From NCBI GenBank assembly GCA_963703955.1, contig CAVPGK010000014.1, positions 32,001 to 96,000 of the forward strand: a DNA stretch of 64,000 nt. Reading direction: 5' to 3'. The position numbers and the translations under genes are program-made. Below are positions 5,800 through 49,406 of this stretch, piece after piece (the first letter of the stretch is position 1; the number at the start of each line of letters is the position of its first letter). The notes below the pieces were generated by a model. That model was given only the letters and a program-made list of their open reading frames with translations, ran no database searches and was not told the DNA's origin. Source of the DNA: Nitrospirota bacterium (GTDB lineage Bacteria > Nitrospirota > Nitrospiria > Nitrospirales > Nitrospiraceae).

Positions 5800-5898
5800 A
5801 TCAGTTTCGTGTTTAGCGTAAGATTAAGGCCTATTGGGCCATCACTTCTAAGATCCTCAACCTTAGCCTTAGATTGTTGAGCAACATGTTCTTAGGAT

Positions 5899-6759: not shown

Positions 6760-6788
6760 AAGTTCTAGGCCGCCCTCAAAAAGCGCTT

Positions 6789-11608: not shown

Positions 11609-11741
11609 GACTTATTATATGGTACACGGGGCTCAGAGACCATGCCCGCATCGGACAAGCGTACCAGGATGCGAGTCCGACCCTTATGGGCTTGCATCTT
11701 CAATATTATGTCGTGCAGAATGCTGCCAGGTTGAGCACGCG

Positions 11742-12155: not shown

Positions 12156-12296
12156 CCGTCTGGTGAGCAAGAAGACAACAACAAAAAACAAAAGTGTGGG
12201 CTTGGCTCTTGCCTCTTGAAAGAAAGTTTGGCAACATGAACACGCGTTTGGATGAACATCTCGTGCCTTACGGCATGGACGATGGAGGAGGGTCAT

Positions 12297-13319
12297 ATGT
12301 TTAGTAGCGCGCGGCCCGATCCCTTGACGCGCGATCTCATCCACCTGATCAACGCCCGTCGTCACGACCATGGCGACGCTGATGCGGCCGTTGAGACCTT
12401 GCAAGCCATTCTTGAGCAGGACCGCGAGCAAGATTTGCTGACGGTGCTTGCTGCGCTGGATGAGGAGATGGCGGAATGGATGTTCGATCTGTTGGCGGAG
12501 GCAGCCTGTTCGGTTGCCGTTGAGCACGATCAGGCAGGACCAGAAGATAAACCTACCTATGCCATTATGGCCGCGCTCGAGCTGCCCCTGCAGGCCGATC
12601 TCAGCTCGCCGCTTCGATTGAAGATCGATCCGGTCGCTACCGCTGACCTGCTGCATAAACATCTTCATCTGCCGGCCGGCACTGTCGTCATGGTGGAACC
12701 GAGACTGCTCACCGACGCTACCTTGGATTTGTTGACCTTGCACGGGTTAAATGAACACATCTCCTCGCTTGCCGATTCCCAGCGCCGTCATCCGATTGCT
12801 GCTCGCTTGCATCCACCCGTCGAATCAACTGCGTACTTGATTTTCGAGCTGATCGGCTCACCCGAATCCGGGTTGCCCGATTCGGTTGAGGAGCAAGACC
12901 GTCAGGCTCTTGTCGGAGGACTCGCCTCGCAGTGTTCAGAGTTGGCTTCCGCGCCGCAGATGCTAGAAGCCCCAGTCTATGCCGCCTATGCGATGTTCGA
13001 TGCGCAAAATGCCGTGCGGCTGCATCGGCTGGCCGATGAAACGATTGGTGTGTGGCGAGATCTCGATCCGAACGTGCGCGGTCGGACCATCGTGCATCTT
13101 CACACGCAATGCGGCAACGGAGTGTACATGCCGGTCTGGACCGATCTTTTTGACCCCGAGTTACCCGAAGACCACGGCCCGGTCTGGACCTCGCCGGATG
13201 TCTGGGTCTTCACCGCCGATCTCCCTATCGAGTGGCCCGGAGAAATGCTGACCAACCGGCTGCTCGCTGAAGGCTGCACCCGCTTCGAAAACCACATCGT
13301 GGAAACTCCGGAGAATTAA
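12297..13319 (+). CDS. Hypothetical acidic protein (340 aa)
   Basis: Long ORF, GGAGGAGG RBS before ATG 12297; no family recognised. Confidence 0.65.
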   Translation: MFSSARPDPLTRDLIHLINARRHDHGDADAAVETLQAILEQDREQDLLTVLAALDEEMAEWMFDLLAEAACSVAVEHDQAGPEDKPTYAIMAALELPLQADLSSPLRLKIDPVATADLLHKHLHLPAGTVVMVEPRLLTDATLDLLTLHGLNEHISSLADSQRRHPIAARLHPPVESTAYLIFELIGSPESGLPDSVEEQDRQALVGGLASQCSELASAPQMLEAPVYAAYAMFDAQNAVRLHRLADETIGVWRDLDPNVRGRTIVHLHTQCGNGVYMPVWTDLFDPELPEDHGPVWTSPDVWVFTADLPIEWPGEMLTNRLLAEGCTRFENHIVETPEN

Positions 13320-13523
13320 TCCGACCGATCACAGCAGTGAATCGTCCTACGTTCGCTTCTCTCGACCACCTTGGACCGTCCGGCCGCAGGCAGTGCGGAA
13401 TTTTCCACGATCAGGAAAGGAGGCGGCGCTTTGGCAACCGCCGGAGTTAGCTTGTAGGAGTTTAGGTGCCCGAATTCAAGATGCGACTGGAACTTACTGA
13501 AACGTCTCGTGACGCTGCCGGAG

Positions 13524-13922
13524 TTACTGCGTTCCGAATCCCCCGAAGCCGGGGCTCCCTAGGGGCTCAAGACCGCGGGGCGTGGGTTGAGGTGTGAGCA
13601 ACGGGAGAGGCGGCGGCTGAACCGCTGGTGCATGTGGGGCGGGGATGGCCGGAATCGTTTGCTTCGCGGCGGAAGAGCCGAAGTGGTAGATCGTACCTGA
13701 CTGTGTCTGTCCCCCTGGACCGATGAACTGCGACGTAGGGCCGAACTTGTAAGCCATGCCCATCGTGCCGTGCGGGTCCTGATAGACGCCGACTCCACCG
13801 AAATCGTATACCGTTCCCGTCGTCCCGTCTTTCCCCCGAAAGATCCTCATCTCACCGAAGGCGATTCCGGCCACCAATGAGACTCCGACGATCATTCCAG
13901 CAATGAGCTGTCGCATAGGCAA
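13524..13922 (-). CDS. Secreted Gly/Pro-rich hypothetical protein
   Basis: N-terminal signal-like hydrophobic segment; repeated 'GT(V/I)Y.FG' units; Pro-rich tail. Confidence 0.6.
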   Translation of the reverse strand: MPMRQLIAGMIVGVSLVAGIAFGEMRIFRGKDGTTGTVYDFGGVGVYQDPHGTMGMAYKFGPTSQFIGPGGQTQSGTIYHFGSSAAKQTIPAIPAPHAPAVQPPPLPLLTPQPTPRGLEPLGSPGFGGFGTQ

Positions 13923-26020: not shown

Positions 26021-28234
26021 ATGACTCACAAGAAGGATCAAGGGTTCTCCGTCAAAGACGTCATCCGCGTCAAGGATCAATTCTATATTCTCGCTAGCTC
26101 CTCACTGGCGGATGCTCGAACCCGAGTATTGAAGCAGGGCGAAACCTTTGCCGTCTTTGATCGTCACGGGGATGTCGGGCCGGTCGGGCTCGGGGTGCAG
26201 GGATTGTATCATGAGGGCACGAGGTTTTTGTCGAGGCTGGAATTGAGGCTGGGGAATGACCGGCCCATGCTCCTAAGCTCGACGGTAACGGACGACAACA
26301 TGCTGCTCACGGTGGACCTCACCAATCAGGATGTGTATGACAACGGCGAAATCAGCGTCTGTCGTGGAACCGTGCATCTGTCCCGCTCGATGTTCCTCTG
26401 GCAGGGACGGTGCTACGAGTGTCTTCGAATATGGAATTATGGCCTTATGTCCCTCGATCTGTCGTTTTCCTTTCAGTTTGAAGCGGACTTTGCCGATATC
26501 TTCGAGGTGCGAGGCCTGAAACGGAAGCAGAGGGGTAGACGCCTCGATCCCGTCGTGGAAAACGGAAGCATCGTCATGGCTTATGAAGGATTGGACGGAA
26601 TCACGCGTCGGAGTCGGCTCGAATGCTCTCCGGCACCACAGAGGGTTTCAGGAGCCTCCGCCCACTTTGAGACCCGGCTTCCGCAGAAAGGGGAGACGAC
26701 CGTCTTTCTGACCGTCTCGTGCGAGGTCCAGGAGACCTCACATCCCCGTCTTTCCTACTCGGACGCCCTTGTGGAAGCACGTAAGGCAAGCAGCGAGGTC
26801 TGGGGCCAGGACAGCCATATCTATACCTCCAACGAAGGATTCAATGATTGGCTGAATCGATCCGTCGCTGATCTCCATATGATGGTAACCATGACTTCGG
26901 AGGGCCCGTATCCCTATGCGGGCGTCCCGTGGTTCAGCACGCCTTTCGGTCGAGACGGCTTGATTACCGCGATGGCCTCCCTTTGGATCAACCCGAGCAT
27001 TGCTCGCGGGGTCCTGGCATATCTCGCCGCAACGCAGGCCAAGGACGTGGCGCCGGAGCAGGATGCCGAACCCGGTAAGATCCTGCATGAAACGCGGTGC
27101 GGCGAAATGGCGGCGTTGGCGGAGATTCCTTTCGGTCGCTATTACGGCAGCGTCGATGCGGTGCCGCTCTTTGTCATCTTGGCGGGGGAGTATTATCATC
27201 TGACCGGAGACCTCGCGTTTATCCGATCGATTTGGCCGAGCATCGAGCTTGCCTTGCAGTGGATGGAGACATACGGCGATGCGGATCACGATGGCTTTGT
27301 GGAGTATGCCAGGCAGTCTCCTCAAGGACTTGTTCAGCAAGGCTGGAAGGATTCGAAAGACTCCGTCTTCCATGCCGACGGGACATTGGCAGAAGGTCCC
27401 ATCGCCTTGTGCGAAGTGCAGGCGTACGTGTACGGAGCCAGGATCATGGCCGCCCACATGGCCGTGTCGCTCGGTCTTGGGGAGCGAGCGGATGCCTTCC
27501 TGGACCGCGCCGAGAACCTGCGACAGCGATTTGAGCAGACCTTTTGGAGTGAGGAACTCTCTACCTACGTCCTGGCTCTGGACGGAAAGAAACAGCCCTG
27601 TCGCGTTCGGACGTCGAATGCGGGACATTGTCTGTTGACGGGGATCGCGGATGGGGAGCGCGCTCGACGCATGGCTGAGGTGCTTATGCAGGATGATTCC
27701 TTTTCCGGATGGGGAATCAGAACTCTCGCCGCGTCCGAGGTTCGGTACAATCCGATGTCCTATCATAACGGCTCCGTGTGGCCTCACGATAATGCGTTGA
27801 TTGCAGCAGGATTCGCCCGCTACGGACTCAAGCAGCCTGTGCTGAAGATCTTGACGGGCCTATTTGATGCATCGTTGTTTTTGGACCTTCGTCGGTTGCC
27901 TGAACTCTTCTGTGGATTCGTACGACGGCCCAGCGAAGGTCCAACGCTCTACCCCGTCGCCTGCTCCCCTCAGGCCTGGGCGGCCGCCTCAGCGTTTCAC
28001 CTCCTTCAAGCCTGTCTGGGCCTTTCCATTGATGGAGCGACCGGACGACTGACCTTGACCAACCCGATCTTACCGGAGTTTCTTGAAGAGGTGCGGATCA
28101 GCAACCTCAAGGTCGGAAAGGCCAAGGTGGATTTGCTGTTCCAACGCTATCCGCAGGACATAAGTGTCCGTGTCCTTCGAATGGACGGACAGGTCGTCAT
28201 CGAAAAGACCGGTATCGGGTCGTCATCCCTCTAG
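26021..28234 (+). CDS. Amylo-alpha-1,6-glucosidase / glycogen debranching enzyme
   Basis: 'AGVPWFSTPFGRD', 'EPGKILHE', 'YYGSVDA', 'QGWKDS', 'SYHNGSVWPHDN', 'ACSPQAWA'. Confidence 0.93.
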   Translation: MTHKKDQGFSVKDVIRVKDQFYILASSSLADARTRVLKQGETFAVFDRHGDVGPVGLGVQGLYHEGTRFLSRLELRLGNDRPMLLSSTVTDDNMLLTVDLTNQDVYDNGEISVCRGTVHLSRSMFLWQGRCYECLRIWNYGLMSLDLSFSFQFEADFADIFEVRGLKRKQRGRRLDPVVENGSIVMAYEGLDGITRRSRLECSPAPQRVSGASAHFETRLPQKGETTVFLTVSCEVQETSHPRLSYSDALVEARKASSEVWGQDSHIYTSNEGFNDWLNRSVADLHMMVTMTSEGPYPYAGVPWFSTPFGRDGLITAMASLWINPSIARGVLAYLAATQAKDVAPEQDAEPGKILHETRCGEMAALAEIPFGRYYGSVDAVPLFVILAGEYYHLTGDLAFIRSIWPSIELALQWMETYGDADHDGFVEYARQSPQGLVQQGWKDSKDSVFHADGTLAEGPIALCEVQAYVYGARIMAAHMAVSLGLGERADAFLDRAENLRQRFEQTFWSEELSTYVLALDGKKQPCRVRTSNAGHCLLTGIADGERARRMAEVLMQDDSFSGWGIRTLAASEVRYNPMSYHNGSVWPHDNALIAAGFARYGLKQPVLKILTGLFDASLFLDLRRLPELFCGFVRRPSEGPTLYPVACSPQAWAAASAFHLLQACLGLSIDGATGRLTLTNPILPEFLEEVRISNLKVGKAKVDLLFQRYPQDISVRVLRMDGQVVIEKTGIGSSSL

Positions 28235-36161: not shown

Positions 36162-37295
36162 TTAGTCCTCAGAAATGAGCGCGGGCCTGGATGAAGCCGC
36201 GAGAGTTGGAAGGGAAGCGGTGGATTCACGTGCGATACGGACGAAGGTGTCGGCAAGTTTAGGATCGAATTCAGTACCGGCCAGTCGCCTTATTTGTTCG
36301 ATGGCATCATGCACGCTCAGCGCTGAGGCCTGTGCAGGTTGTTCGGCGGTCAGATGGTCGAACACTTGGGCAATGGAGACGATTCGGGCGAGCAGCGGAA
36401 TCCCGTCCCCCTGGAGCCCATAGGGATAGCCCATACCATCATACCGCTCGTGGTGGTAGAGGATGATCTGCCCCACCTCCGCCGGAACCCTAAGGGGGAG
36501 ACTCAATCGAGATCCCATCTCCGGATGACGCTTGAAGAGTTCGGACTCTCGTTCGTCCAAAACCCGCCTCTTGTCCAGGAGGCGGTCATCAAGCCCTATC
36601 TGTCCGACGTCATGAAGGAAGGACCCGATGGCGAGGGTTTTCCGCGCTTCTTCACTTAGGCCAAGATGTTTCCCAAGGAGTCCGGCATAGAAAGTCGTGC
36701 GGCTCGAATGATTGAAAAGATCGCGATTCTTAGCTTCCAACAAGTCTAAAAGAAGCGAAGTGGCTTCCCCGCTGTCGGACGCGCGGGATTCAGGCTTATG
36801 CTTTGAACGAGTCTGTTGGCAGAGATCACGAAGCTGATTCCATGCGGCAGACGATTCATGCTCTGTTCCCCAGAGTCCTTCCGAGTGCTTGAGGAAAAGC
36901 CGGAGCCCGGCGAGACGTTTCTTCTTGCCGAGCGTCTGATCGATAACGGCCAACAATTCTGTCACGTTGAAGGGCTTGAGCAGGTACGCTGCCGCTCCGT
37001 AGCGGATGGCATCCATCGCGGATTTCAGGCTGCCGTACCCGGTGATGATAACCACCTCAACATCACCACGCACCTCTTTGATTTGCTGCAAAAGGTCCAT
37101 GCCATTGCGATCGGGCAGCTTCATGTCAAGGGTCACGAGGTCAATCGTATTTTCTTTGAGGGTACGGATCGCCGCATGACCGTTGTCAACCGCGTGGAGA
37201 TTATAGAACGGTCGCAGGATGACCTTGAGGGCATTCCGGGGCCCTAACTCGTCTTCCACGATCAGTATGGTGGGTTTGTGGTCTTCTTGAAACAT
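36162..37295 (-). CDS. REC + HD-GYP domain protein (possibly degenerate c-di-GMP phosphodiesterase)
   Basis: REC 'IVEDE','LDMKLP','LLKPF'; 'LHDVGQ', 'HHERYDGMGYP', 'ARIVSIAQVFD'. Confidence 0.88.
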   Translation of the reverse strand: MFQEDHKPTILIVEDELGPRNALKVILRPFYNLHAVDNGHAAIRTLKENTIDLVTLDMKLPDRNGMDLLQQIKEVRGDVEVVIITGYGSLKSAMDAIRYGAAAYLLKPFNVTELLAVIDQTLGKKKRLAGLRLFLKHSEGLWGTEHESSAAWNQLRDLCQQTRSKHKPESRASDSGEATSLLLDLLEAKNRDLFNHSSRTTFYAGLLGKHLGLSEEARKTLAIGSFLHDVGQIGLDDRLLDKRRVLDERESELFKRHPEMGSRLSLPLRVPAEVGQIILYHHERYDGMGYPYGLQGDGIPLLARIVSIAQVFDHLTAEQPAQASALSVHDAIEQIRRLAGTEFDPKLADTFVRIARESTASLPTLAASSRPALISED

Positions 37296-37317
37296 CGGCG
37301 CCAAGAGTCTATTCGCC

Positions 37318-37346
37318 CTTATACGTCCGAAGACACATTTTGTCAA
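37318..37346 (-). promoter_or_regulatory. Putative internal sigma-70 promoter of the HD-GYP gene
   Basis: Minus strand TTGACA-N17-TATAAG just upstream of ATG 37295. Confidence 0.55.
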
Positions 37347-37378: not shown

Positions 37379-38794
37379 TCAGGAAGGAGCAAAGGCTTCC
37401 CTATGTTCGGCTGATCCGTTCGAATCATCTCGGCGGATCCCGAGCATATCCATGCGGTATTTGAGCATCCGGCGGCTGATGCCCAGTAGCGCTGAGGCAT
37501 GAGTCTGGACATAATCCGTTTTCTGAAGGGCATCGAGGATGATCTTTCGCTCGAATTCCATGACGGCCCTTTCCAATGAGATCCGTCCGGAAAGAGTTTC
37601 ATTACGTAAGGAGTCGGAATGGGTGTCGGTTCTGAGACCACCCGGGAGGTGTTCCGGAAGGATGGTGTGGCCGTCCGACCAGACAATGGCCTGTTCAACC
37701 ACGTTTTCCAGTTCACGGACATTGCCGGGCCAGTTGTACTTGCTGAGGATCTCCAAGGTCTCCTTCGAAAATTCCTGGTGCGGGTGGTGCTCCTCTTCCA
37801 GTCGTTTGGCCAGGAAATGTTTCGCAAGCAATGGAATATCCTCGCGCCGATCGCGGAGAGCCGGCAGATATAGCGACACTACGTTAATTCGATAATAGAG
37901 ATCCTCTCGAAACTCTTTCCGTCGAAGGAGTTCCTCCAAATTCTTGTTGGTGGCCGCCATAATCCTCACGTCAACTTTGATCGGATGCGTTCCTCCAATG
38001 CGGGTGAATTCTCGTTCTTGGATGACCCGAAGCAACTTGGCTTGTGTCGCCAGGCTGAGGTCTCCAATTTCGTCGAGAAACACACTTCCGCCATGGGCAA
38101 GCTCAAACTGACCCAGGCGGCGTGACTGAGCGTCTGTGAAGGACCCTTTCTCGTGTCCGAACAGTTCGCTTTCGATCAATGTTTCGGGTAATGCGGCGCA
38201 ATTCAATGCAATAAACGGACGATCCCGACGTAAACTGTTGTAGTGAAGCGCGCGAGCGACCAACTCTTTCCCCGTGCCGCTCTCGCCGGTGATCAGGACC
38301 GTGGTCCGCGTGTCGGCGACCTGCACGATCTTGGCGTAAATGTCGCGCATGGCTGGACTTTTGCCCACGAGACTGTCAAATCCGTATTTATGTGCGACCT
38401 GGGCTCGAAGATATCGAACTTCCCGCTCTAACGCCTGTTTCTCGATTGCGTTTTCCATCGTGAGGCGAAGTTCTTCGATCTCAAACGGCTTGGTGAGATA
38501 GTCGGCGGCCCCCATCTTCATGGCGTCGACCACGGTTTTCACCATTTTTGTCCCTGTGAGCATGATGATCGGAATCCGAGGATCTTCCGAATGCATGGTC
38601 TTAAGCACCGAGAGACCGTCTTCGCCAGGCAGCATGACGTCCAATAAAACGAGATCAGGCGAATCACGCTTGTAGAGGTTCACGCCTTCTTCCCCCTCGG
38701 AGGCGCAGATGAGCTCATAGGTCGGTTCAAGGACCATCTTCAATGACATGTGGATGCTGGATTCGTCATCGACCAATAGAACCCGCTTTTTCAT
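37379..38794 (-). CDS. Sigma-54-dependent response regulator (NtrC family: REC-AAA+-Fis HTH)
   Basis: 'GESGTGKE', 'ESELFGHEKGSFTDA', 'FLDEIG', 'FREDLYYR', 'WPGNVRELEN', 'LLGISRRML'. Confidence 0.95.
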   Translation of the reverse strand: MKKRVLLVDDESSIHMSLKMVLEPTYELICASEGEEGVNLYKRDSPDLVLLDVMLPGEDGLSVLKTMHSEDPRIPIIMLTGTKMVKTVVDAMKMGAADYLTKPFEIEELRLTMENAIEKQALEREVRYLRAQVAHKYGFDSLVGKSPAMRDIYAKIVQVADTRTTVLITGESGTGKELVARALHYNSLRRDRPFIALNCAALPETLIESELFGHEKGSFTDAQSRRLGQFELAHGGSVFLDEIGDLSLATQAKLLRVIQEREFTRIGGTHPIKVDVRIMAATNKNLEELLRRKEFREDLYYRINVVSLYLPALRDRREDIPLLAKHFLAKRLEEEHHPHQEFSKETLEILSKYNWPGNVRELENVVEQAIVWSDGHTILPEHLPGGLRTDTHSDSLRNETLSGRISLERAVMEFERKIILDALQKTDYVQTHASALLGISRRMLKYRMDMLGIRRDDSNGSAEHREAFAPS

Positions 38795-41699
38795 GTTCGC
38801 TTTGTTCCTTTTTTGATGACACGTGTGCTAATGGGTTGGCTCTTAGATTGACATAGAATGTCGTTCCACTTCCCAGGGTACTCTCAACCTCAATGAAACC
38901 ATGGTGCTCCTGGATGATTTGATGGACGATGTTGAGGCCCAGTCCGGTTCCTTCACGTTCTCCACTCTCATGCTTGGTGGTATAGAAAGGGTCGAAAATG
39001 TGCTCCAAGTTGGCAGGTGCGATCCCGCTCCCCGTATCGGACACCTCGATCTGAACCCACAGATCGCCGGAGAGTTTTGTCACGCGATGCGTTCTCACGG
39101 TCAATTGGCCACCATCCTTATCCATCGCCTCCATCGCATTCTGAAACAGATTGTGCAAGACTTGTATGATTTGTTGCCGGTCGAGGAGGATACGGGGCAA
39201 ATCATCAGTCAGGTCTCGCTCGATTGTAATGGACTTGTTGGCAGCCTTGACCTCTATATAATAGAGACAGGAGGCCACGACGTCGTTGAGGTCCTCCTCA
39301 TTCAACTTGGGTTCCATGTATCGGGCGTAATCCAGGATTTCGTGGATCAGACGCTCGATCCGGCGGACATCTTCGATAACCACTTTGCTGAATTGATCGA
39401 TAAACTCTGCATCATGTCTTCGGCTTGGCGCCAACTGGATAAAGGTCTTAATGGATGTGAGGGGGTTTCGAATCTCATGTGCAAATCCACCTGCCATCGT
39501 TTCGAGAGAACGGAGGCGATCGGTGCGCCGCATGAGGAGTTGGGAGCGTTTGAGGTCCGTGTAGAGGATGGCATTGTCCAGAGCGACGGCGGCGTTCTGA
39601 GCTAGGGAAGTCAGCAGATTCAGATCGTCTTCGGTGTACTGGTAATGGTCATTCCGATGTCCCAAGTTAATAAAACCGATGACGCGATCCTTGTTGATCA
39701 AGGGAAGGCAAACCTCGGATGACATCTGCTGTAGGGTCTGCATGACGGATCGAGGAACGTCCGGGCTCCGCGCGTGCTCCAATTCTTCGCGGACGAGAAT
39801 CGATTGACAATATCTTAAGTGATAGGGCAAGCCGTCCTCTGCCGGTAGGCGGATGGTCTTGAGCTTCTCCGAATCTCTTGAATTTGCCAGCGCCAATGTG
39901 TAGAGGGCCTTTTCGTTATCCAGCAAAAACAACGAGATGTGTTTGATGCCCAATGATTTTTCGAGGGTGGCCAAAATGGTCTGAGTAAGTGTCGGCAGGT
40001 CCAAGATCGACACCATGGCCTTGCTGAATTCTCTCAAGGTGTCATAGGCCTCCTGTCTGCCCTTAAACAGGGTCTTGCCCACGATGCCTTCCACGTGTTT
40101 CTGCAGAGTGGCAAGAATTCCGGCGAAAATCATGTTGGTGGCCAGCAGGATTCCCGCCAACTGATAGTGCATGGAGCCGGTAAAGAGTCTAACCAAGAAG
40201 AGGATCACCACGTATGAAAGGGTTCCGATTGAAAACGCTTCGATATATGGGAGAACTTTGGATTTCGTCAGGACGAGGGAAATGTCCAGGAGTTGGTACC
40301 TGGCAATCGCATAGGAAACGATCAGAGTCCACGCGCTGACACAAAGGTAGCCCAGGGGATAGAACTCGACGCCGTAGTTCTGCACGAAATCGAGAGAGGC
40401 AAGATAGCCGATGACAAACGCCCAGAAGACATACTTAACCCGTGTGGCTTCAAGGGCATGTGCGGCAGCTTTATAGCCTGTGTGAAGCTTGAAAATCGAC
40501 AAGACGCTGACCCAGCCGAAATACACCAAGAAAACCGGGTGAAGGAGACCAGCTCTTGGATAGAACCCCCAAAAATAGGAGTAGTAGCCATCGATCAAAT
40601 AGGTGGTGGGAACGAGAAACAGGAAGATCGTGCTGATCAGGTAATTTGGCACAATCCACCTACAGCGGGGATGCGTTTGCAGAAGACTCACGCAGAAGTG
40701 GTAGAAAAAGGCCGGAATATAGACCACACCGGCGTAGACCACTTTGGCCCAGAACTGGACCTCTTCCGCACTCGATGCCGAATAAATCATGAAGAATCCG
40801 AACAGCCAGGTACTTAAACCGATGCAAATCAGACTGAAGGTGATATTCTTCACGGTCCGATGGCTTTTCATGAAAATCCATAAGCCACAGGCGACAACCA
40901 AACTGCCCGCGAGCAGCGGCGGGAGCGAATAGAGTGTGGCGCGTTCGCTGATGAGCACACCTAGGTAGATTGGCAACGTGATCGCCGCCAACAAGAGTCC
41001 GTAGGTAAGACCTTTGTGCATTACGATGGTGATGTCCATTAGTCGATGGCGGACGATCGCGTAAGAAATGATTCCGGCGAACAAGACCAGAAGGAAATCG
41101 TGCGGAAATGGCTCTACTTGGACATAGGCTCCGACGAAATGCATGAGCCCGGCGGTGTAGGCAAGCGCAAACGAAGCAAGGACGTACCCGAGCTGATTTC
41201 TTCTTAATCCCGTTGACTGAACATAGCTTCTAAAGGTCTTGTAGAACGCGAAACCGCAACCCAATCCAAAAAATGCCGTGAAAGGTATAAAGAGCCCACC
41301 GGGAATGACCGCGTACAAGAAATCGTGGCGGACGACCCCTTGTATAAAGCTGTGACTGAATGCGAAGGCCGAGAAAACAAATGAGCAAACAAGTAAGCCT
41401 GTCAAGAAGTGTCGTTCGAAAGGATCGTGTTCCAAATGCAAGAGGACGACGACAAAATAATAAAATGCAGTTGGCACAAACGGAGCGAATACGTACACTA
41501 TTCGACCCACGATAGCAGCCGTTTCATCACTCGCGGGAAGGGAGATAAGAAAAGGGAAAACGGTCCACGTGCCTGCAAGGAAGGCGATGAGCGCAAAGGA
41601 TCGGTTAAGAAGTTTCTCGGTATCCTTTAAGTAAACTAAAAGCCCTACGCTCAGGCAGCTAGCTGATGCTGTCAGGGAGGCGAGCGGATAGAGATTCAC
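38766..41699 (-). CDS. Sensor histidine kinase with two tandem 7TM (HisKA_7TM-like) domains, GAF, HisKA, HATPase
   Basis: Repeated membrane modules ending 'YAIVRHRLMDI' and 'YAIARYQLLDI'; 'AHEIRNPL', 'NLFQNAMEA', 'DTGSGI', 'GTGLGL'; GTG start overlaps upstream TGA (GTGA 41696-41699). Confidence 0.92.
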   Translation of the reverse strand: MNLYPLASLTASASCLSVGLLVYLKDTEKLLNRSFALIAFLAGTWTVFPFLISLPASDETAAIVGRIVYVFAPFVPTAFYYFVVVLLHLEHDPFERHFLTGLLVCSFVFSAFAFSHSFIQGVVRHDFLYAVIPGGLFIPFTAFFGLGCGFAFYKTFRSYVQSTGLRRNQLGYVLASFALAYTAGLMHFVGAYVQVEPFPHDFLLVLFAGIISYAIVRHRLMDITIVMHKGLTYGLLLAAITLPIYLGVLISERATLYSLPPLLAGSLVVACGLWIFMKSHRTVKNITFSLICIGLSTWLFGFFMIYSASSAEEVQFWAKVVYAGVVYIPAFFYHFCVSLLQTHPRCRWIVPNYLISTIFLFLVPTTYLIDGYYSYFWGFYPRAGLLHPVFLVYFGWVSVLSIFKLHTGYKAAAHALEATRVKYVFWAFVIGYLASLDFVQNYGVEFYPLGYLCVSAWTLIVSYAIARYQLLDISLVLTKSKVLPYIEAFSIGTLSYVVILFLVRLFTGSMHYQLAGILLATNMIFAGILATLQKHVEGIVGKTLFKGRQEAYDTLREFSKAMVSILDLPTLTQTILATLEKSLGIKHISLFLLDNEKALYTLALANSRDSEKLKTIRLPAEDGLPYHLRYCQSILVREELEHARSPDVPRSVMQTLQQMSSEVCLPLINKDRVIGFINLGHRNDHYQYTEDDLNLLTSLAQNAAVALDNAILYTDLKRSQLLMRRTDRLRSLETMAGGFAHEIRNPLTSIKTFIQLAPSRRHDAEFIDQFSKVVIEDVRRIERLIHEILDYARYMEPKLNEEDLNDVVASCLYYIEVKAANKSITIERDLTDDLPRILLDRQQIIQVLHNLFQNAMEAMDKDGGQLTVRTHRVTKLSGDLWVQIEVSDTGSGIAPANLEHIFDPFYTTKHESGEREGTGLGLNIVHQIIQEHHGFIEVESTLGSGTTFYVNLRANPLAHVSSKKEQSEHEKAGSIGR

Positions 41700-43948
41700 T
41701 TGCTGGTTTTCCGCATCCTGGTTATGGTAATGCCTTGTAGGTGGGAGGTTTTCTGCCACACGTAGTTCAACTCGCCATATGGTCCTCCTGTTCTGCGGGT
41801 CCCTCCATGCGTCGCCAAAAAAGGTGAGAAGCCTGCATGTCGACAATTGATTCGCAAGAGCCCACTGTTGTGGATCTGCTCGGAAAATTTATTGACGTAA
41901 AAGGGCGATGAAGCCCAAGCGGACACTCGGAGGCCATACTCATTGTTGTTTGCTACGTGGACCATTTTCTTGAAGATAACCATGTCCTTCGTGCCCTTAT
42001 CAGCGCCCCTCGCATCTGCAGAGACTCTTATGAGTGGGATCAGGGGAAAAAAGTTTTCCTCGTTCATACACCTCATTTGAGACGCCTTCGAAAGATCCTT
42101 TACCCTGATCACCGTCGGAGTAATGAATTGACCATGATTGTCAGGAATCGCCTTATAATTCACTCTGTATCCACCACAGAGCAACTCGGCTCCTTTGGCT
42201 AACGCTTCCTCTAGGAACTCGAAGAACTCAGGAATCTTTATGACCGGTGAGAAAGTAACGTGTGGATCGGTTGGCAACCCGATTCGCAGCTTTTTGACAG
42301 CTGAAAGAAATAGCTCCTGAAAAGACTCAAAAATATCCTCGTGGATAAAGGCTTTTTTCGGTACCATGCAAACCTGTGTGGAACCCATAAACCCGTCCAA
42401 TAATGATTGGACCGCCATCTCCAAGGGAGCATCCTTCCAAACGAACATCATGTCGTTTCCAGAAAGTTCGAGAATAGGTTTTTTCCCATTCTCATAGGCT
42501 CGAGCCCCAATCTTGAGTCCAGTCTTGCTGTCTCCAATGAAAATTAGGTCGTTAACAAGTTGACTGTTGAGCCATTCATCAACAATCAACTCGGAGTTTC
42601 CAACTACAAGATTCACTGTTCCATCGGGTGCATGATTGTGTTTCAATGACTCGTGAACGACGTTCTTCCAGAGGAAGAGGGTGGAAATAGGGGATTGAAG
42701 CGGAGGCTTCACAACGAGAGTATTCCCGGAAAGAAGAGCGAAACCGGCGATTAATGAGGCGCTGCACGGCGCGTTCCTAGGAGGGCTGACGCACACAACT
42801 CCATCGGGCTTTCTCTTCCAATACAGATTCTCTTCGTCGACCACGGCTATCTTCCTTGTGAGGTGTTGAACATAAAAGTCGAGTGAAGGCTTGCGGTAAG
42901 CCTGTTCCATTCCAAGGAATTCCCATTCGGCCAACTGTCGTGGGTGACCTTCAACAACCATGAGTTCGATCAGCTGGTCTTTATTTATCAGCAGAAGGTC
43001 ATGTATGTCTGTGGCGATCCTTAGGCGTTTGGAAAGAGAGAAATAGCGAAATTCCTGGCTGGCCGCGTAGGCGGCCTCGAGAGCCGCTCGATTGGTATCT
43101 TTCTTGCCGAAACAATAACGCGCGTATATGTAATCCTTATAGTTTGGTGGAACCTGTCCTCGCTTGACCTGCTTCATCACCTGCGAGACTGCTTCCTGGT
43201 CCGTAAGAAGTTTAGCTGCGGGGACCACATACTTGTAATGGCCTGTGTCGATATCGTTACCGTTGATCAGCAAGGCGAAGGTCGGAATATCCAGATTGAG
43301 GGCGAGGGGTGCTTCCTTGTCGACAGGATGAGATATTTGGACGAACGGCAGGGGCGGTTGAGTCTGTGGTTGCCGTGCAGATATCAGCGCGTCATACGTC
43401 AAAGGAGGAAGGATCTGTGGGACGTTGGCCATGTCGGCATGAGCCTTGTCGTTAGCAGGAGGGCGGTACAACCTTGCAGCTTCTTCAGCAAGACTGTCTC
43501 GAGAGAGGAAAATGGTCAGGAGAGATTTGTCACGCGTCGGGCCTATTCGGCCTAGTTCGTCCAAAAGTGAAAGAAGAATGATCTGCTCCCATTCTCGAAT
43601 ATCTGAAAACTTAATCCCGATGATATCGAGTGCGCCATGTTGCGCGTAACGGCAGTAGACAATCTGTCCGCAAACGTTCAAATAACAGATATTGCCGCCG
43701 AATGAAAACTTGAGGGCGAGAGGGGTGCCCATAGCCAAGGGGACGCCGCTGACTACTCTCAAACCTCCTGGGCTGATATCTTCCGTCTGACAAGAAATTG
43801 AAGTGTCCTTGATATGGATGCAGGTGGGGATGTGAAGTGACTTCCGTATATGTCGACGGACATACGGTCGTTGTGTCTCAGACTCCAGACTTTCCCATGC
43901 CGACAGCATGGTTCTCTTAGGGAGGTGTTCTTTAGTACCTTGTGGCAT
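41696..43948 (-). CDS. PilZ domain - aldehyde dehydrogenase family fusion
   Basis: PilZ 'RRHIR...DISPGG'; ALDH 'PPRNAP', 'GNTLVVKP', 'FIGDSKTG', 'LELSGND', 'TQVCM', 'EENFFP', 'NNEYGL'. Confidence 0.88.
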   Translation of the reverse strand: MPQGTKEHLPKRTMLSAWESLESETQRPYVRRHIRKSLHIPTCIHIKDTSISCQTEDISPGGLRVVSGVPLAMGTPLALKFSFGGNICYLNVCGQIVYCRYAQHGALDIIGIKFSDIREWEQIILLSLLDELGRIGPTRDKSLLTIFLSRDSLAEEAARLYRPPANDKAHADMANVPQILPPLTYDALISARQPQTQPPLPFVQISHPVDKEAPLALNLDIPTFALLINGNDIDTGHYKYVVPAAKLLTDQEAVSQVMKQVKRGQVPPNYKDYIYARYCFGKKDTNRAALEAAYAASQEFRYFSLSKRLRIATDIHDLLLINKDQLIELMVVEGHPRQLAEWEFLGMEQAYRKPSLDFYVQHLTRKIAVVDEENLYWKRKPDGVVCVSPPRNAPCSASLIAGFALLSGNTLVVKPPLQSPISTLFLWKNVVHESLKHNHAPDGTVNLVVGNSELIVDEWLNSQLVNDLIFIGDSKTGLKIGARAYENGKKPILELSGNDMMFVWKDAPLEMAVQSLLDGFMGSTQVCMVPKKAFIHEDIFESFQELFLSAVKKLRIGLPTDPHVTFSPVIKIPEFFEFLEEALAKGAELLCGGYRVNYKAIPDNHGQFITPTVIRVKDLSKASQMRCMNEENFFPLIPLIRVSADARGADKGTKDMVIFKKMVHVANNNEYGLRVSAWASSPFYVNKFSEQIHNSGLLRINCRHAGFSPFLATHGGTRRTGGPYGELNYVWQKTSHLQGITITRMRKTSK

Positions 43949-44086
43949 CCTAAATGCCTTTGAAGCTACAATGGCGCGCCCTGCACATTACGAAACCGAC
44001 TTCATGCTAAAGAATCAGGAAGGAAAGCAGTCTGAAGGTTCTCATGATCATCAGACACTTAGCTCGTCGAAGCTTTGATCGACAAA

Positions 44087-44114
44087 ATTGTACACTCTTC
44101 TGCATATAATGCAA
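44087..44114 (-). promoter_or_regulatory. Possible promoter of the PilZ-ALDH/HK/NtrC operon with overlapping palindrome
   Basis: Minus strand TTGCAT-N16-TACAAT; TGCAT-ATA-ATGCA palindrome at 44101-44113. Confidence 0.35.
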
Positions 44115-44310
44115 TACCTAAGAGGAATATTGACCTCGGAGGTTCCAGGCTCTCAGCGGGCTAGAGATTCTATAGAAGTCCAAACTGAAGAGTTTTTTCG
44201 GCGGTGTATGTGATTCAGAAGCCCTCGCTATGCCTGATAATTTTGAAAATATCAAGAAAAATATTTAGGAATACTAAAATTACATCAGAGACGTGCAGTT
44301 GGGGCTCATC

Positions 44311-47300
44311 TCAGGTCATCTTTTGTCCCCCCTTTTCTGCAACAGCGATGTAGGCCTGGTTCGCGAATGTCGAATAGATACGGGGCTGCAGGGCCCCGGA
44401 CGAGATCAACAGCGTCGCCAACTCTTGCCGATCGAAGAATCGAAAAACGCCTTCCTGCTCCCGCTGCGCAATCTTCCCTGATGTGTTCAATACCTGTTTC
44501 GCTTTTTCAATTTCCTCGGCTGGTTTACCGAGTCCAAGAAAATTCCGATAAATAGGAGAGAGATCCGCCTGAGGCTTGAAGATCGTCATGACCAGTCTTC
44601 CTCCCGGGGATAGCACTCGCATTAGTTCACGAAGAGTAAAGAGGGGGTCGCGAAGGTATCCGATGACCAAGTTACACAAGATTCGATTGAACTGGTTATC
44701 ATGAAAGGGCAATGTCTGGTCAAGGTCTGCTTGCGCGAGCGCCGACGCCAGAATCGGAAGGGGCCTTTCGGTTGAAGGGAACCGCTCATGAATGTCGGCA
44801 GCGACCCTTGACAAGTTAAGCTGCGCCTGCGAGAGCCCGCTCATAACGAAATCGACTCCCAAGTACCGCATTCGTTGGGTAACCGGAGAGTTTCGTAAGC
44901 GATATGATTCGTTAATAAACAAGAACATCCCAAAATTGCCGTTTCCGCAGCCGGCGTCCAAAACGCAGTCGTTCTCGCCAAGATTACCCATGAGACGGTA
45001 GATGTGGTCGAGGAGATGCCAATAGTCAGAAAAGTTCACAATGAACTGAGACTGGTCGAGATAGTCTCGCCAGAATTCAAACGCCTCAGATTTGGCCATG
45101 TGGTGTTGCGTGCGAGCACGCTCTCGTTCAAGCCGAACCTGGCGATCGAGTTCGTGATCCGACGGGAGAGCAAGTTGGAACGCATCGGAGAGCGGATAGA
45201 ACCAAGCTCGGCAACACTGCACCATCCGTTGAAAGACGTCCCGCGCACGCTCCGGGCGTTTGTGGATGTCATGAACCGCATCGGCCATGAGATACCAGTC
45301 AATGGCATATTCCCGCAGGGAGGTTTTCACCTTCTTTAACGCGCCTTGATCAACCCACGAATCGTGTTCCGATGAAAAGAAAACGACCGGGGTTTTCACT
45401 TGCTCGGCATCCTTCAGCGTCGTCTCCAGATCGGAATACTCTTGTCGGGTCGCATCTGCCAGCCATCGATCTGCATCAACCGAAAACCCCAGCAGATTGC
45501 TGACCCCCCGTCTCATGCCGTGAAGGTGGCCGCCAACCAAATCTTCCCCGTGTACGGTCCGTAACGTCGACTGCACGTCAACCACTCCGCCCAAGAGAAG
45601 AAGGAACTTGACAGTACGGCTCTGCAAGATAGTCTTCAACGCGACCCGGCCGGTCACTCCCGAGGCTACCACAAGGACCGGACTGGCGGGCCAGAGACGA
45701 TCAGCGTAGCTCAGAATCGCGCGGAGATCTTCGTTCATCGTCGTGAGCGTGGTATGGACGATGTCGCCCTGACTGTCGCCGATATGAAATGTGTGGTCAT
45801 ATCGAATCACCCGAAAGCCGTTGCCGGCGAAATGATAGGCCAACGAGACATAGTCTCTCTTGGTTTCTCCGAATCCAGGGGCAAGAATGACGAGCGGAGA
45901 GCCAGGCGGGAGTGCCTCACGGGGATGATCATGGTACAGCACGAGGCGACGTCCTCTTTCATTGAGGCATTCCAGCAACTCACTAACCAAGGTCGTTTGT
46001 TCATGAGGGTCCTGGATACGGTCGGGCGAGGTAAGGTAGTGAGTGATGAGTTCCGCAATCCTGCGCTCGGAGGCGCCGTCAAAACGTATGAACCGAAGCC
46101 CGATGAGGAGGGGAGTTGCTGATGAGGGCTCTGAAGGAGTTGTCGAAACAGCGGAGGCCGAAGAAACCCACACCACGTCGCCCATGACGCAATCTTCCTT
46201 CCCTGGCGCGTTCTCCGTGGAACGATCCGATACCGTTCGAGAAGTGTCCAGACACAGACGAATGCGATGACCCACTACGTCGGGTGAGGCGTGTAGTCGC
46301 ACCCGGGCCCCAGTGGTCGTCAAATCGACCAGGTGAGCCTCCACACGGTCAAATCTCGGGGCAGTTCCGATTGATCCCACTTGAACAGGGACATCGAGAT
46401 GTACGCGAGCTGATACGCGCCGATCCCCGGGACCCCCTTCATTCTTCTTGGCAAAGCCTGCCGGGATATCAACGAGCTCAACACGCTCATGATCGGTCAG
46501 TATGCCGGACTGGTGCTGTCCTGCGTCGCGCGGTAGGAGCACGGCGGTCAGCTTGACCGTGACTGTTCGACTGCGGAGGCCTTCGAACAGCGATTTCAGT
46601 ATTCGGCTTTCCGAATCCTGGAGGACTGAGAATTCAACGGCGAGTCCGGTCAATGAGAGCTTGTCGTGGTGATCCTGAGTGACAGCGGGCTCACGGAGTT
46701 CACAGACCCTCCCCGAAATCTCCAAGATCCCCACGTCGCTGATGAATCCTAATCGGATCGACTGGAACACATGTGCGGACACCGGCCCTTTGAATACTGT
46801 GTATACGCCGCCCAGGCTGACGTTCAGGGTCGTGCCGGTCCACGCGGTCCCATTGAGTCGCAGATAGGTCTCCATCTGAACTTCAGTTCGCGGAGAGCGG
46901 CGTCGTTCGGGGAAAAGGCACTCGTCGGTTGTCTTGGACGGAACGAGGCGGATGGGTGAGTCTTCGACTTTCGTCGACATCGGGGGAGTGTGAGGAACTG
47001 CGGACCCCGACGATCCATAACCGAACTCTTTCTGAACATCCTGCAAGGTGTGAAGCAGTTGCTCCGCGTTCGCGAGGATCGTGGCGAGGGGGGGTGCCAA
47101 GTCCGCGAGCCGGCGCGCCAGGCGTTCCTTATCTTGCGATTCAACGACTGGCCTCAGTACGCCAGTCGTTCCGAGATACTGGCGATACCGATCGTACAGA
47201 GCCGTGGCATTGACCTCGACGACGATGGGTTTCTGCGCTTCTCCTTTGACCTTGAGTTGAAGCTGGAGCTTCCTCGTCGCGCGGGGCAATGAACGTCGTT

Positions 47301-47907
47301 CGTTGAAGTGCCGATTCGCCTTCACCAATTCATCGGAGCCGAGGATCGAGGAATACGGGAGTCCGATCAATTCGTGAGGCTCATAATTGAGCAATGCCTT
47401 CACGGCCGGGCTGAGATACACAAATCGCCCCTCGGCATCGAGTTCATAAATCGTTTCAGTCAGGTTCTCGATCAGGTTTTGGTACCGATCCTGCGAGAGA
47501 TCGAGCCGTGAACGCAGATCCCGCTTTTCGAGCGCCTCTCGGGTGACAATCGGCAGGTCCATGAGCGCTGCGGGTGAATACTTGAAAAAATAATAATCTG
47601 CTCCGCCGCGCATCACGCGAAGCGCGACGCGCGGGTCTTGCTGAACGCCTTCGACGATGATGGCGGATTGTGGAGCTCGACGCCTGATTTCCTGGAGAAG
47701 ATCGAGATCGCCCGCATGGGGAAGTTGCTCGTCGAGAAGGATCATGTGCCAGTCGAGTTTGGATGCCCACTCCAAGGCCTCGTTCGCGGAATAGACGGCC
47801 TCCACTCGACATCCGGGGTAAAAGGATCTCAGACTCACGGTCATGAGTTTGATTTCCTCCGCTTGCTCATTGACGAGCAAGACTGTCATGGCTTCAGATT
47901 TAGGCAT
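44311..47907 (-). CDS. Multidomain REC-PAS-PilZ-PilZ-LuxD-like acyltransferase/thioesterase-SAM methyltransferase
   Basis: REC 'ILLDEQLP'; PAS 'IYELDAEGRFVYLSP'; PilZ 'RRRSPR..NVSLGG' and 'RRVSAR..DLTTTG'; LuxD-like 'APGFG','NGFRVIRYD..HIGDSQG','GVVDV','DSWV','HDI'; MTase 'VLDAGCGNG','LSPGG'. Confidence 0.85.
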   Translation of the reverse strand: MPKSEAMTVLLVNEQAEEIKLMTVSLRSFYPGCRVEAVYSANEALEWASKLDWHMILLDEQLPHAGDLDLLQEIRRRAPQSAIIVEGVQQDPRVALRVMRGGADYYFFKYSPAALMDLPIVTREALEKRDLRSRLDLSQDRYQNLIENLTETIYELDAEGRFVYLSPAVKALLNYEPHELIGLPYSSILGSDELVKANRHFNERRSLPRATRKLQLQLKVKGEAQKPIVVEVNATALYDRYRQYLGTTGVLRPVVESQDKERLARRLADLAPPLATILANAEQLLHTLQDVQKEFGYGSSGSAVPHTPPMSTKVEDSPIRLVPSKTTDECLFPERRRSPRTEVQMETYLRLNGTAWTGTTLNVSLGGVYTVFKGPVSAHVFQSIRLGFISDVGILEISGRVCELREPAVTQDHHDKLSLTGLAVEFSVLQDSESRILKSLFEGLRSRTVTVKLTAVLLPRDAGQHQSGILTDHERVELVDIPAGFAKKNEGGPGDRRVSARVHLDVPVQVGSIGTAPRFDRVEAHLVDLTTTGARVRLHASPDVVGHRIRLCLDTSRTVSDRSTENAPGKEDCVMGDVVWVSSASAVSTTPSEPSSATPLLIGLRFIRFDGASERRIAELITHYLTSPDRIQDPHEQTTLVSELLECLNERGRRLVLYHDHPREALPPGSPLVILAPGFGETKRDYVSLAYHFAGNGFRVIRYDHTFHIGDSQGDIVHTTLTTMNEDLRAILSYADRLWPASPVLVVASGVTGRVALKTILQSRTVKFLLLLGGVVDVQSTLRTVHGEDLVGGHLHGMRRGVSNLLGFSVDADRWLADATRQEYSDLETTLKDAEQVKTPVVFFSSEHDSWVDQGALKKVKTSLREYAIDWYLMADAVHDIHKRPERARDVFQRMVQCCRAWFYPLSDAFQLALPSDHELDRQVRLERERARTQHHMAKSEAFEFWRDYLDQSQFIVNFSDYWHLLDHIYRLMGNLGENDCVLDAGCGNGNFGMFLFINESYRLRNSPVTQRMRYLGVDFVMSGLSQAQLNLSRVAADIHERFPSTERPLPILASALAQADLDQTLPFHDNQFNRILCNLVIGYLRDPLFTLRELMRVLSPGGRLVMTIFKPQADLSPIYRNFLGLGKPAEEIEKAKQVLNTSGKIAQREQEGVFRFFDRQELATLLISSGALQPRIYSTFANQAYIAVAEKGGQKMT

Positions 47908-48401
47908 GGGCACTCGCCAATGCGGGGGGATGAAGAGCCGAGTTGACGCAGGGCCCGATGACCACCGGCACATGATCGAAGGGCGTCCAATAGCTGCCAC
48001 CTGACCGAGGAGCCGATACGAAATAAGCAGTGGGTGTGCGCATGAGCGGAAGAAACGGGATCGCCGTCAATGGTCGAGGCGTCGCGGTCGATCCGGCTCG
48101 CGTCGAGGGATGGGAGGGAGACGTGCTCGGGCGACGATTCTCTCCTGGGCGCCCCTTGCTCATGAGGTCATCTGTCGGCCATAGCCCGGAATGGCTGGGA
48201 GGGGGATGGTGAAAAATGAGCAGGAGCAGGAAGCCGGTGTCCCACGCAGGCTCATGCACGTACATTCACCTACAATTCAGACCACAAGCTGTCATACCAC
48301 GATGAGGCAGTCAATTAGACTTTAGACCTAAAACGGCCCAGGCTGGTTGACACACGGAAGATCGTCGGCCGTATCGATGACGGTCAAGCGACACATTCAC
48401 G

Positions 48402-49406
48402 TTACCGGGCCTCGACTCTCTCGTCGGCGCCGCAGATCCCCGGTGTCATGTACAGAAGGTAGTTCCCCATGCCGTGCTGAACGCGGGGATCGTGCAAAGG
48501 ATGGTGATAGACCATCACCATCTCATACTCATCCTTCGTTGTCACTGAAAACCCTTGAGCATCTCTATATACCTGGTGAGGCTGAAACGCAATGAATGTC
48601 CCGTCTTGGGCCACGTCCGGAACCGTGCGAAGAAGGGTTCGACCGGCCGTCCTGTTTTCGAGCGCAATCAGAAGTAATTCGTCGTGTCCGTGGGGATACG
48701 CGAATTTGACACATCCGTCCATCCGAAACTTCAGCGTGGACGATAGGGTGTGAACCCCCGGCTTGATTTCGATTCCCTCATCGGTCTGGTCTTTCCCGCG
48801 TTGTCCAAACTTGCTGTAGCAGACGATGTTCACGCCGACTTGATAGACGTCCATTTCTTTGATGGGAGTACCGTCAGGAGCCATCTCCATCGTGAAGGTT
48901 GCCATCACATCCTTCATCGGCGGGGCCTTATGATAGAAGGCGACCACGGACATCAGCTTCTTGCCCTTTTCCAATTTCACCCCATAGCCGGACGGAAAAC
49001 GGGCCTCGGTCATCTCCAAGCCGGCGCCTGAGAAGAATAGCGGCTCGCCGGGACACGAGACGCTTTCTTTATCGTTGTTCATCATGAGAATGTGATGCAG
49101 ATACTGCTGTGGCAGGGGCCTGCCTTCTTTCGTAAAGACAGCCGATTTGAAGCCGACCAAATACATATCCTTCGGGAGTTCGAAAATATGCTTCGGCATG
49201 CTGGCCGCCAATTCACCGTCGTGTGCGGCCGGAAGGTCGATCGGTCCGAATGTCAGGGTGACCGTAGTGCCTTCAACCGTGACAGTGGTGGTGGTCTGTC
49301 CGTCCAATGTCGGAACGCCATGCGAATGGCTCTCACTTCCCAGTGCCGGGCCGGCCATGGCTGAGAACATCAGCATCAGCAATCCTACCGAGACCAATCG
49401 CTTCAT
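48402..49406 (-). CDS. Secreted protein with copper type II (PHM/DBH-like) monooxygenase ligand pattern
   Basis: GGAGGA RBS, signal peptide; 'YLHHILM', 'FYH', 'PHGH', 'HGMGNY'. Confidence 0.6.
   Translation of the reverse strand: MKRLVSVGLLMLMFSAMAGPALGSESHSHGVPTLDGQTTTTVTVEGTTVTLTFGPIDLPAAHDGELAASMPKHIFELPKDMYLVGFKSAVFTKEGRPLPQQYLHHILMMNNDKESVSCPGEPLFFSGAGLEMTEARFPSGYGVKLEKGKKLMSVVAFYHKAPPMKDVMATFTMEMAPDGTPIKEMDVYQVGVNIVCYSKFGQRGKDQTDEGIEIKPGVHTLSSTLKFRMDGCVKFAYPHGHDELLLIALENRTAGRTLLRTVPDVAQDGTFIAFQPHQVYRDAQGFSVTTKDEYEMVMVYHHPLHDPRVQHGMGNYLLYMTPGICGADERVEAR

Follow-up and report, generated by a model that had tools for sequence, protein, structure and literature searches.

LuxD of Vibrio harveyi is a myristoyl-acyl carrier protein (ACP) thioesterase/acyltransferase (PDB 1THT; PF02273, NF052253) in which we take Asp211 and His241 to be the catalytic pair. 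In the diffusible signal factor (DSF) system RpfF/RpfC/RpfG, an acyl-ACP thioesterase activity, a membrane kinase and a REC-HD-GYP regulator are encoded in one cluster; RpfF is a crotonase-fold enzyme, and the system has no methyltransferase and a sensor domain different from the one described below. The papers concerned name Ser114 of LuxD as the acylated residue (PMC6279958), place the nucleophile of alpha/beta-hydrolases at the tip of the turn that follows strand beta5 (PMC7034887), describe the methyltransferase PhcB of Ralstonia Phc quorum sensing as making the methyl esters of 3-hydroxymyristic or 3-hydroxypalmitic acid (3-OH MAME/PAME), sensed by PhcS (PMC11298618, PMC9102662), and report that DPP10 retains His and Asp with Gly for Ser and is inactive, while DPP6, also inactive, carries Asp for Ser (PMC4350108). 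Here we analyzed a stretch of 64,000 nucleotides from a Nitrospirota bacterium (GCA_963703955.1, contig CAVPGK010000014.1, positions 32,001 to 96,000; hereafter the window), which encodes a LuxD-like domain with Gly at the nucleophile position inside a multidomain protein, followed by an aldehyde dehydrogenase gene and a sensor kinase gene of the HisKA_7TM type. We consider it rather probable that the domain is a retired signal synthase, and that the receptor head next door was swapped for one of another enzyme type.

The reading frame (44311..48000, minus strand) comprises 1229 codons counted from the first GTG, which is also the origin of our residue numbers; its likely start is the ATG at 47905-47907, giving 1198 amino acids (a 97% identical relative has 1196). 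An earlier note on this DNA, made by eye, had aligned the segment with LuxD along its whole length, and profile, pairwise and structural comparisons all bear this out. PF02273 (Acyl_transf_2), rather than another hydrolase family, came out of the profile search and covers residues 682-927 (83.7 bits against a cut-off of 20.3; expectation value E = 1.8e-23). The best PDB match by phmmer was LuxD itself (1THT, E = 4e-21; runner-up 7.7e-6), which the family profile matched with E = 1.6e-38. In an AlphaFold2 model (mean predicted local distance difference test score, pLDDT, 87.4), the LuxD-like and methyltransferase domains fold as one confident model (predicted template modeling score, pTM, 0.79), for which 1THT was the top structural match (Foldseek E = 2.6e-18; Z = 30.6 and root mean square deviation 2.9 Å over 283 residues, spanning model residues 12-317 and including the C-terminal helix; next entry Z = 27.9). 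Identity to LuxD is only about 20%, and the equivalog cut-offs for LuxD were missed by far (NF052253, 81-85 versus 420 bits; PRK13604, 80-84 versus 529). Unlike LuxD, moreover, the domain is fused to REC, PAS, PilZ and methyltransferase domains.

The claim that the domain lies outside a lux operon also held. It is surrounded by signaling genes and a generic aldehyde dehydrogenase gene, with no luxCDABE setting; LuxE was not found in the genome (82% complete), in which luxAB was not searched for, and the LuxC family gave a weak match (E = 2.9e-5) on another contig. The adjacent dehydrogenase was rejected as a LuxC-like partner, its matches being to PF00171 and to generic aldehyde dehydrogenases rather than to PF05893.

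In the phmmer alignment to 1THT, G781 falls on Ser114, D880 on Asp211 and H910 on His241; the acid and base of the triad are thus present and the Ser nucleophile is absent. The elbow reads V-V-A779-S780-G781-V-T-G-R785 (ASG at 45658-45666) and aligns without a gap, confirming the Gly proposed earlier for this position. For this Gly two explanations had been offered, a nucleophile shifted to the preceding Ser or a pseudo-enzyme; the second is supported by what follows and the first is not. Elbows of the window protein and 133 of 139 relatives (6 partial rows dropped) were aligned. The ungapped nucleophile column of these 134 rows holds Ser in 112, Gly in 11, Asp in 9 and Asn in 2, while the column before it (-1) holds Thr in 102, Ser in 18 and other residues elsewhere. 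That Ser780 is a moved nucleophile completing the triad of an active enzyme might be argued from its position next to Gly781, from the presence of Asp and His, and from the -1 residue of the four closest relatives, which is Ser in all but L032. Intact members, however, ordinarily carry a hydroxyl at -1, and Ser780 is therefore no sign of a move; the -1 residue is Ser in 3 of the 11 Gly rows and Thr, Ala, Arg or His in the other 8 (Thr in L032, 77% identical). By DSSP, the strand of the model ends at S780 and the next helix begins at G783, so that the turn contains G781 but not S780. We regard a moved nucleophile as extremely unlikely.

Catalysis might instead persist without Ser if the retained His-Asp pair activated water or the substrate, in keeping with the presence of Asp880 and His910 in the window, P0122, P0002 and L032. 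This too appears very unlikely. The triad His is kept in 112/112 Ser rows but in only 6/22 non-Ser rows, being lost in the other 16; the next closest Gly relatives (P0003, P0124) lack it, and around His910 of the window four conserved loop residues have drifted (P906A, L909V, R911D, E914K). According to PMC4350108, DPP10 is inactive with the same combination of Gly, His and Asp; DPP10 and DPP6 resemble our domain in being alpha/beta-hydrolases whose catalytic Ser became Gly or Asp, with His and Asp kept and a role other than catalysis. They differ in being animal extracellular channel subunits of an unrelated family, whereas the type described here is bacterial and cytoplasmic, has several origins and is tied to the swap of a neighboring receptor.

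The domain has nevertheless kept its fold with Gly at the nucleophile position, and is under purifying selection. Of 63 positions that 36 intact copies have in common, it retains 52; the GF/GY-GE and RYD..HxGxSxG motifs are among them, and the changes lie at the elbow and the His loop. The ratio of nonsynonymous to synonymous substitutions (dN/dS, NG86 method) against L032 was 0.08, a figure that is only rough, and to that extent a weaker argument for our reading, because dS is near saturation (1.7); it falls within the range of seven intact pairs (0.05-0.25), and seven further pairs without Ser gave 0.10-0.20. By these substitution rates, purifying selection still acts on the Ser-less domain. 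A decaying pseudogene was rejected on the open frame and low dN/dS, and an assembly error on the Gly that distinct database entries with 97%, 89%, 63% and 61% identity in this domain also carry (P0122, P0002, P0003, P0124). Judged from its sequence, the domain is likely to be catalytically dead, i.e. a pseudo-enzyme.

The organisms from which its homologues come place the genome among Nitrospiraceae/Nitrospirales. PF02273 matches once in the window genome and in 199/301 genomes of Nitrospirales. Eighty stretches of that order, hand-picked to span genera, gave with the window 81 loci, or 80 without L049, which lacks the LuxD domain. Across these 80 loci all Ser codons are AGY (42/42), and the replacements are exclusively Gly (11), Asn (6) and Asp (21), whose codons are near neighbors of AGY by transitions. 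Gly, Asn and Asp are also the residues that best tolerate the strained geometry of the elbow. An Asp-nucleophile chemistry in the Asp clade was considered and is unlikely, 20 of the 21 Asp loci having no His.

Five of the 80 loci end at the LuxD gene, leaving 75 with downstream DNA. A HisKA_7TM kinase was the next gene, or fused in one case, for 36/40 Ser copies versus 0/35 non-Ser copies. The latter are followed by a kinase without 7TM (21), a regulator but no kinase (5), an inserted PilZ-enzyme gene (6: two dehydrogenases, three heme-oxygenase-like diiron enzymes and one FabH-like enzyme) or other genes (3). Intact LuxD-methyltransferase genes directly precede a HisKA_7TM kinase gene, and the stop codon of the one often overlaps the start codon of the other (L033, L036, L072, L087); Ser loss tracks loss of the matching head next door, and the Ser-less domain therefore reads as a retired synthase. 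After thinning to 45 rows, a tree with six distant Ser copies as its root shows 6 changes between Ser and non-Ser, at least 4 of them forced by starred branches (an earlier quick tree of 79 rows also gave 6), so that on these trees Ser was lost at least four times. The intact orthologues retain Ser-Asp-His, as in LuxD.

Pairing extends beyond Nitrospirales. A profile search returned 311 representatives at E up to 1e-30, many of them LuxD-methyltransferase proteins of 550-720 amino acids without PilZ, with Ser in those listed. We further scanned genomes with a pattern from the methyltransferase part, not the elbow; the best 80 of 95 loci belong to ten phyla (62 Verrucomicrobiota, 5 Binatota, 3 Omnitrophota, 3 labelled Myxococcota, 2 Planctomycetota and five singletons). 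All readable elbows among these best 80 carry Ser-Asp-His (79/79), and a 7TM kinase is next in 77; the remaining 3 end within 223 bases, giving 77/77 loci with room. A FadL-type outer-membrane (fatty-acid) channel occurs in 49 of them, 42 being Verrucomicrobiota, and FabF, FabG, a START domain or a hot-dog thioesterase is near distant copies in single cases. Separately, we observed a START/polyketide-cyclase domain fused to LuxD-methyltransferase (L112:6557-8692) and a ketoacyl synthase and a hot-dog thioesterase adjoining such copies (L142:5501-6748, L113:5246-5713).

In the window, the gene between the LuxD-like protein and the kinase encodes a PilZ-aldehyde dehydrogenase of a rare subfamily, found in 3/401 genomes of the phylum at E up to 1e-60 and in 12 metagenome loci. 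It lies directly before a 7TM kinase in 10/10 loci with room (14 examined), with LuxD-methyltransferase upstream in 1/9 loci with a visible upstream gene; in that one (L199) the LuxD copy again has Gly and belongs to a different branch than the window. First 7TM repeats were compared in a tree of 48 repeats, with 17 near-duplicate loci left out, and another comparison took all 83. In the tree of 48 they group according to their upstream enzyme rather than their host: heads paired with LuxD, which come from several phyla, lie on one side (32/33, support 100/98; L113 is the exception), diiron-oxidase-paired (4/4) and FabH-paired (2/2) heads form clades of their own, and the 9 dehydrogenase-paired heads form two clades. 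Enzyme type changes 4 times on the first-repeat tree, against a mean of 14.2 after shuffling. The window first repeat is of dehydrogenase type, with 49-57% identity to its clade and about 30-35% to the others, while its second repeat falls among the second repeats of every enzyme type. The GC content at third codon positions (GC3) of dehydrogenase and first repeat is 0.544 (978 codons), versus 0.626 (2787 codons) in the flanking coding parts. Since the kinase core is as close to a dehydrogenase-paired kinase as to LuxD-paired ones, it is the repeat trees and GC3 that place the swap boundary. Upstream of the dehydrogenase, an AT-rich spacer of 362 bases (43949-44310) separates it from the LuxD-like gene, while several intact loci have a stop/start overlap instead; the spacer may hold a promoter brought with the inserted module. 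Elsewhere, a stand-alone dehydrogenase is directly preceded by a FadL channel (L207:6167-7531).

For intact copies we used Ralstonia Phc as a working model: a methyltransferase gene next to a membrane sensor kinase gene, in a fatty-acid context. This adjacency is seen in the intact relatives, whereas the dehydrogenase intervenes in the window. The likeness is drawn from gene arrangement, not from sequence kinship to PhcB; no match named PhcB appeared among those listed for the methyltransferase, in collections not known to include it. The present system differs in that its thioesterase is of LuxD type and fused, its kinase is HisKA_7TM-GAF, its outputs are NtrC and HD-GYP, and its inputs are PilZ domains; regulators of the PhcR/PhcQ type are absent, the window having NtrC-type and REC-HD-GYP regulators downstream. 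With the DSF system, intact copies share the predicted acyl-ACP thioesterase activity, the membrane kinase and REC-HD-GYP regulator, and differ in fold, methyltransferase and sensor domain. In an intact copy, the enzyme would free a fatty acid from its acyl-ACP and then methylate it; the resulting ester would pass out of the cell, where the 7TM head would read it. The NtrC and HD-GYP regulators would carry the output, and the PilZ domains would provide feedback, closing a loop of cyclic di-GMP (c-di-GMP). By analogy, the signal of the intact pair is probably a fatty-acid methyl ester, while for the scheme as a whole, from the release of the fatty acid to the feedback, we see roughly even chances.

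In the window lineage, a dehydrogenase gene with its own 7TM head would have occupied the slot while the rest of the kinase stayed; the pattern is plain from the trees, and a takeover is its likely cause. Because the LuxD product had lost its matching reader, as we propose, Ser781 would have been freed from selection and become Gly, with Gly, Asn or Asp arising in other lineages. That Ser loss followed loss of the matching receptor is, in our view, highly probable. The domain would then likely have stayed on in the REC-PAS-PilZ-methyltransferase protein as a folded part with a structural or regulatory role, possibly for structural support, acyl binding or protein contacts. The methyltransferase, which keeps 50 of 57 family-conserved positions, could act on the acid made by the dehydrogenase, a guess that we find rather unlikely, weakened because the dehydrogenase usually stands alone. 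A complex prediction for LuxD-methyltransferase (556 amino acids) with the GAF-HisKA-HATPase part of the kinase scored 0.00 and was counted neither way.

The acyl-binding idea, which the earlier note had raised, deserves separate weighing: the dead domain would bind a fatty acyl chain or acyl-ACP, as a sensor or as a presenter to the fused methyltransferase. Purifying selection as strong as in intact copies, the conserved positions and motifs kept, the intact motif I of the methyltransferase and the joint fold of both domains speak for it. Yet it is not what the context first suggests, given that Ser loss tracks head loss. The large Asp clade, moreover, is under purifying selection although decayed in both domains (about 0.5-0.7 and 0.4-0.6 of conserved positions kept), and retention therefore needs no working methyltransferase; relatives L049 and L017 dispense with the LuxD domain altogether, and the partner dehydrogenase has no LuxD-methyltransferase upstream in 8/9 visible loci. 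We consider such a role unlikely, but it can coexist with retirement of the synthase and would then explain the retention.

Retirement of the synthase after a head swap has to be held against several observations that weigh against it. Among Ser copies, four have no LuxD-type head adjoining (L038 and L078, with a diiron oxidase between; L056 and L066, with no kinase next), L113 adjoins a head of non-LuxD type, and Ser row L077 is nested in the Asn clade. Most rows are kin and their counts not independent, the same being true of the distant loci (62 of the best 80 of 95, and 42/49 FadL cases, are Verrucomicrobiota); a test of independent pairs was underpowered (2 usable pairs on starred branches, p = 1), and the association of Ser loss with head loss is thus a strong pattern, but one drawn from a small number of independent events. 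The window kinase core has 74-76% identity to LuxD-paired kinases and 78% to dehydrogenase-paired L206. Although none was found elsewhere in the genome, a LuxD-type head may lie in the part that is missing from this 82% complete assembly. Asp880 and His910 are retained in the window and its two closest relatives. Searches of PDB, NCBIfam, ESM Atlas and plasmids with the methyltransferase gave generic class I matches only.

An alternative view of the intact pairs is that the enzyme modifies a membrane lipid or metabolite monitored by the adjacent kinase, as regulation and not as cell-cell signaling. The fatty-acid genes near some distant copies would suit it, as would the lack of a known product and of a HisKA_7TM ligand in the accessible parts of papers naming that domain. 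A diffusible small molecule fits better, however, with the strict pairing of one enzyme with one head across four unrelated enzyme types and with the recurrent FadL channel, and we find lipid monitoring distinctly unlikely. More broadly, and only tentatively, HisKA_7TM kinases may be receptors of a widespread lipid-signal family, in which synthase and first 7TM head are exchanged as a cassette (LuxD-methyltransferase, aldehyde dehydrogenase, diiron oxidase, FabH-like), giving private c-di-GMP-gated dialects in nitrifiers, Opitutae, Omnitrophota, Binatota and others. Displaced synthases would be kept as intracellular pseudo-enzyme regulators, and in Nitrospira the whole circuit would have been rewired into the cytoplasm, its synthase dead and its kinase headless.

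The ingredients are each known, namely the LuxD fold, synthase-kinase pairs and Gly pseudo-hydrolases; for the head swap and its link to Ser loss we found no paper. With subscription journals outside the search, no literature was found on LuxD in Nitrospira, on a LuxD homolog combined with a methyltransferase, a non-luminous host and a sensor kinase, or, preprint supplements also being outside, on a LuxD-type/7TM pair or head swap. HisKA_7TM literature consisted of archaeal surveys, the accessible parts of which give no ligand; a paper on nitrifier quorum sensing (PMC8553950) has no PhcB, LuxD, DSF, methyl ester or RpfF; and the accessible part of a PilZ network preprint mentions no such fusion, although its supplements could list these proteins. 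The context likely points to a swappable signaling system undescribed in the literature found. It would supply a sequence-level rule for the passage from enzyme to pseudo-enzyme, loss of the matched receptor in several lineages, and names candidate ligand-making enzymes for HisKA_7TM, a membrane sensor domain without a ligand in that literature. Should the signal prove real, it would be a means of communication other than N-acyl-homoserine lactones in nitrifying bacteria, and in no fewer than eight further bacterial phyla.

Table 1. Features of the LuxD-like locus in the window (SAM, S-adenosylmethionine).
Feature	Position	Strand	Basis
REC-PAS-PilZ-PilZ-LuxD-like-SAM methyltransferase reading frame	44311..48000	-	reading-frame list, Pfam
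Receiver domain, atypical	47551..47889	-	PF00072, alignment
PAS domain	47140..47487	-	PF00989
PilZ domain 1, RxxxR and NxSxxG motifs (predicted c-di-GMP binding)	46588..46908	-	Pfam, motifs
PilZ domain 2, RxxxR and DxTxxG motifs	46045..46422	-	Pfam, motifs
LuxD-like alpha/beta-hydrolase domain, likely catalytically dead	45106..45972	-	PF02273, phmmer, Foldseek/1THT
Class I SAM methyltransferase, motif I LDAGCGNG intact	44329..45093	-	Pfam, conservation
Gly781 (GGA), nucleophile position (LuxD Ser114)	45658..45660	-	phmmer alignment, family alignment
Ser780 at -1, where the family normally has Thr/Ser; no moved nucleophile	45661..45663	-	family alignment
Asp880, triad acid position, kept	45361..45363	-	phmmer, family alignment
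His910, triad base position, kept	45271..45273	-	family alignment
PilZ-aldehyde dehydrogenase, directly before kinase; catalytic-Cys motif QVC and ExFxP kept; GC3 0.52-0.55	41696..43948	-	Pfam, motifs
Kinase, first HisKA_7TM repeat, dehydrogenase-type head; GTG start overlaps dehydrogenase TGA; GC3 0.54	41022..41699	-	Pfam, tree
Rest of sensor kinase: second 7TM repeat, GAF, HisKA, HATPase; GC3 0.61-0.66	38766..40949	-	Pfam
NtrC-type sigma-54 response regulator	37379..38794	-	Pfam
REC-HD-GYP-type protein (predicted c-di-GMP phosphodiesterase)	36162..37346	-	PF00072, PF13487

In the receiver domain of the window protein the acceptor Asp (ILLD) is kept, and what we take to be the acidic pocket and the Thr/Ser position are degenerate. 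Relatives vary in architecture. At L088:5383-10305(+), an intact PilZ-PilZ-LuxD-methyltransferase and a 7TM-GAF kinase share one frame of 1641 amino acids, either a real fusion or a one-base error, the sister locus L087 having overlapping genes. Some genomes, among them G007 (L039 and L047), have both an intact copy before a 7TM kinase and a dead copy; the dead copy has Asp and a degenerate methyltransferase, and stands before a 7TM-less kinase near recN. Most genomes of genus g31 have two PF02273 matches. L037:10436-14029 and L038:10585-14133 encode some 300 extra C-terminal residues. At L049 the LuxD domain is deleted (REC-PAS-PilZ-methyltransferase, 11697-13913), with a PilZ-FabH-like gene (9933-11498) before the kinase, and the Asn copy L080:3398-5978 has its methyltransferase split over two frames.

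The gene at 48402-49406(-) of the window encodes a protein of 334 amino acids without a Pfam or NCBIfam match; its N-terminus resembles a signal sequence, and His residues are clustered in it (HH, HxH). The gene lies upstream of the LuxD-like gene in 10/21 loci, and by eye its product recalls a copper monooxygenase. Further genes of the window, named by eye, presumably encode a squalene/phytoene synthase with a flavin desaturase-like neighbor (4456-6903), a class II ribonucleotide reductase (9821-11608) and a glycogen-debranching-type protein (26021-28234).

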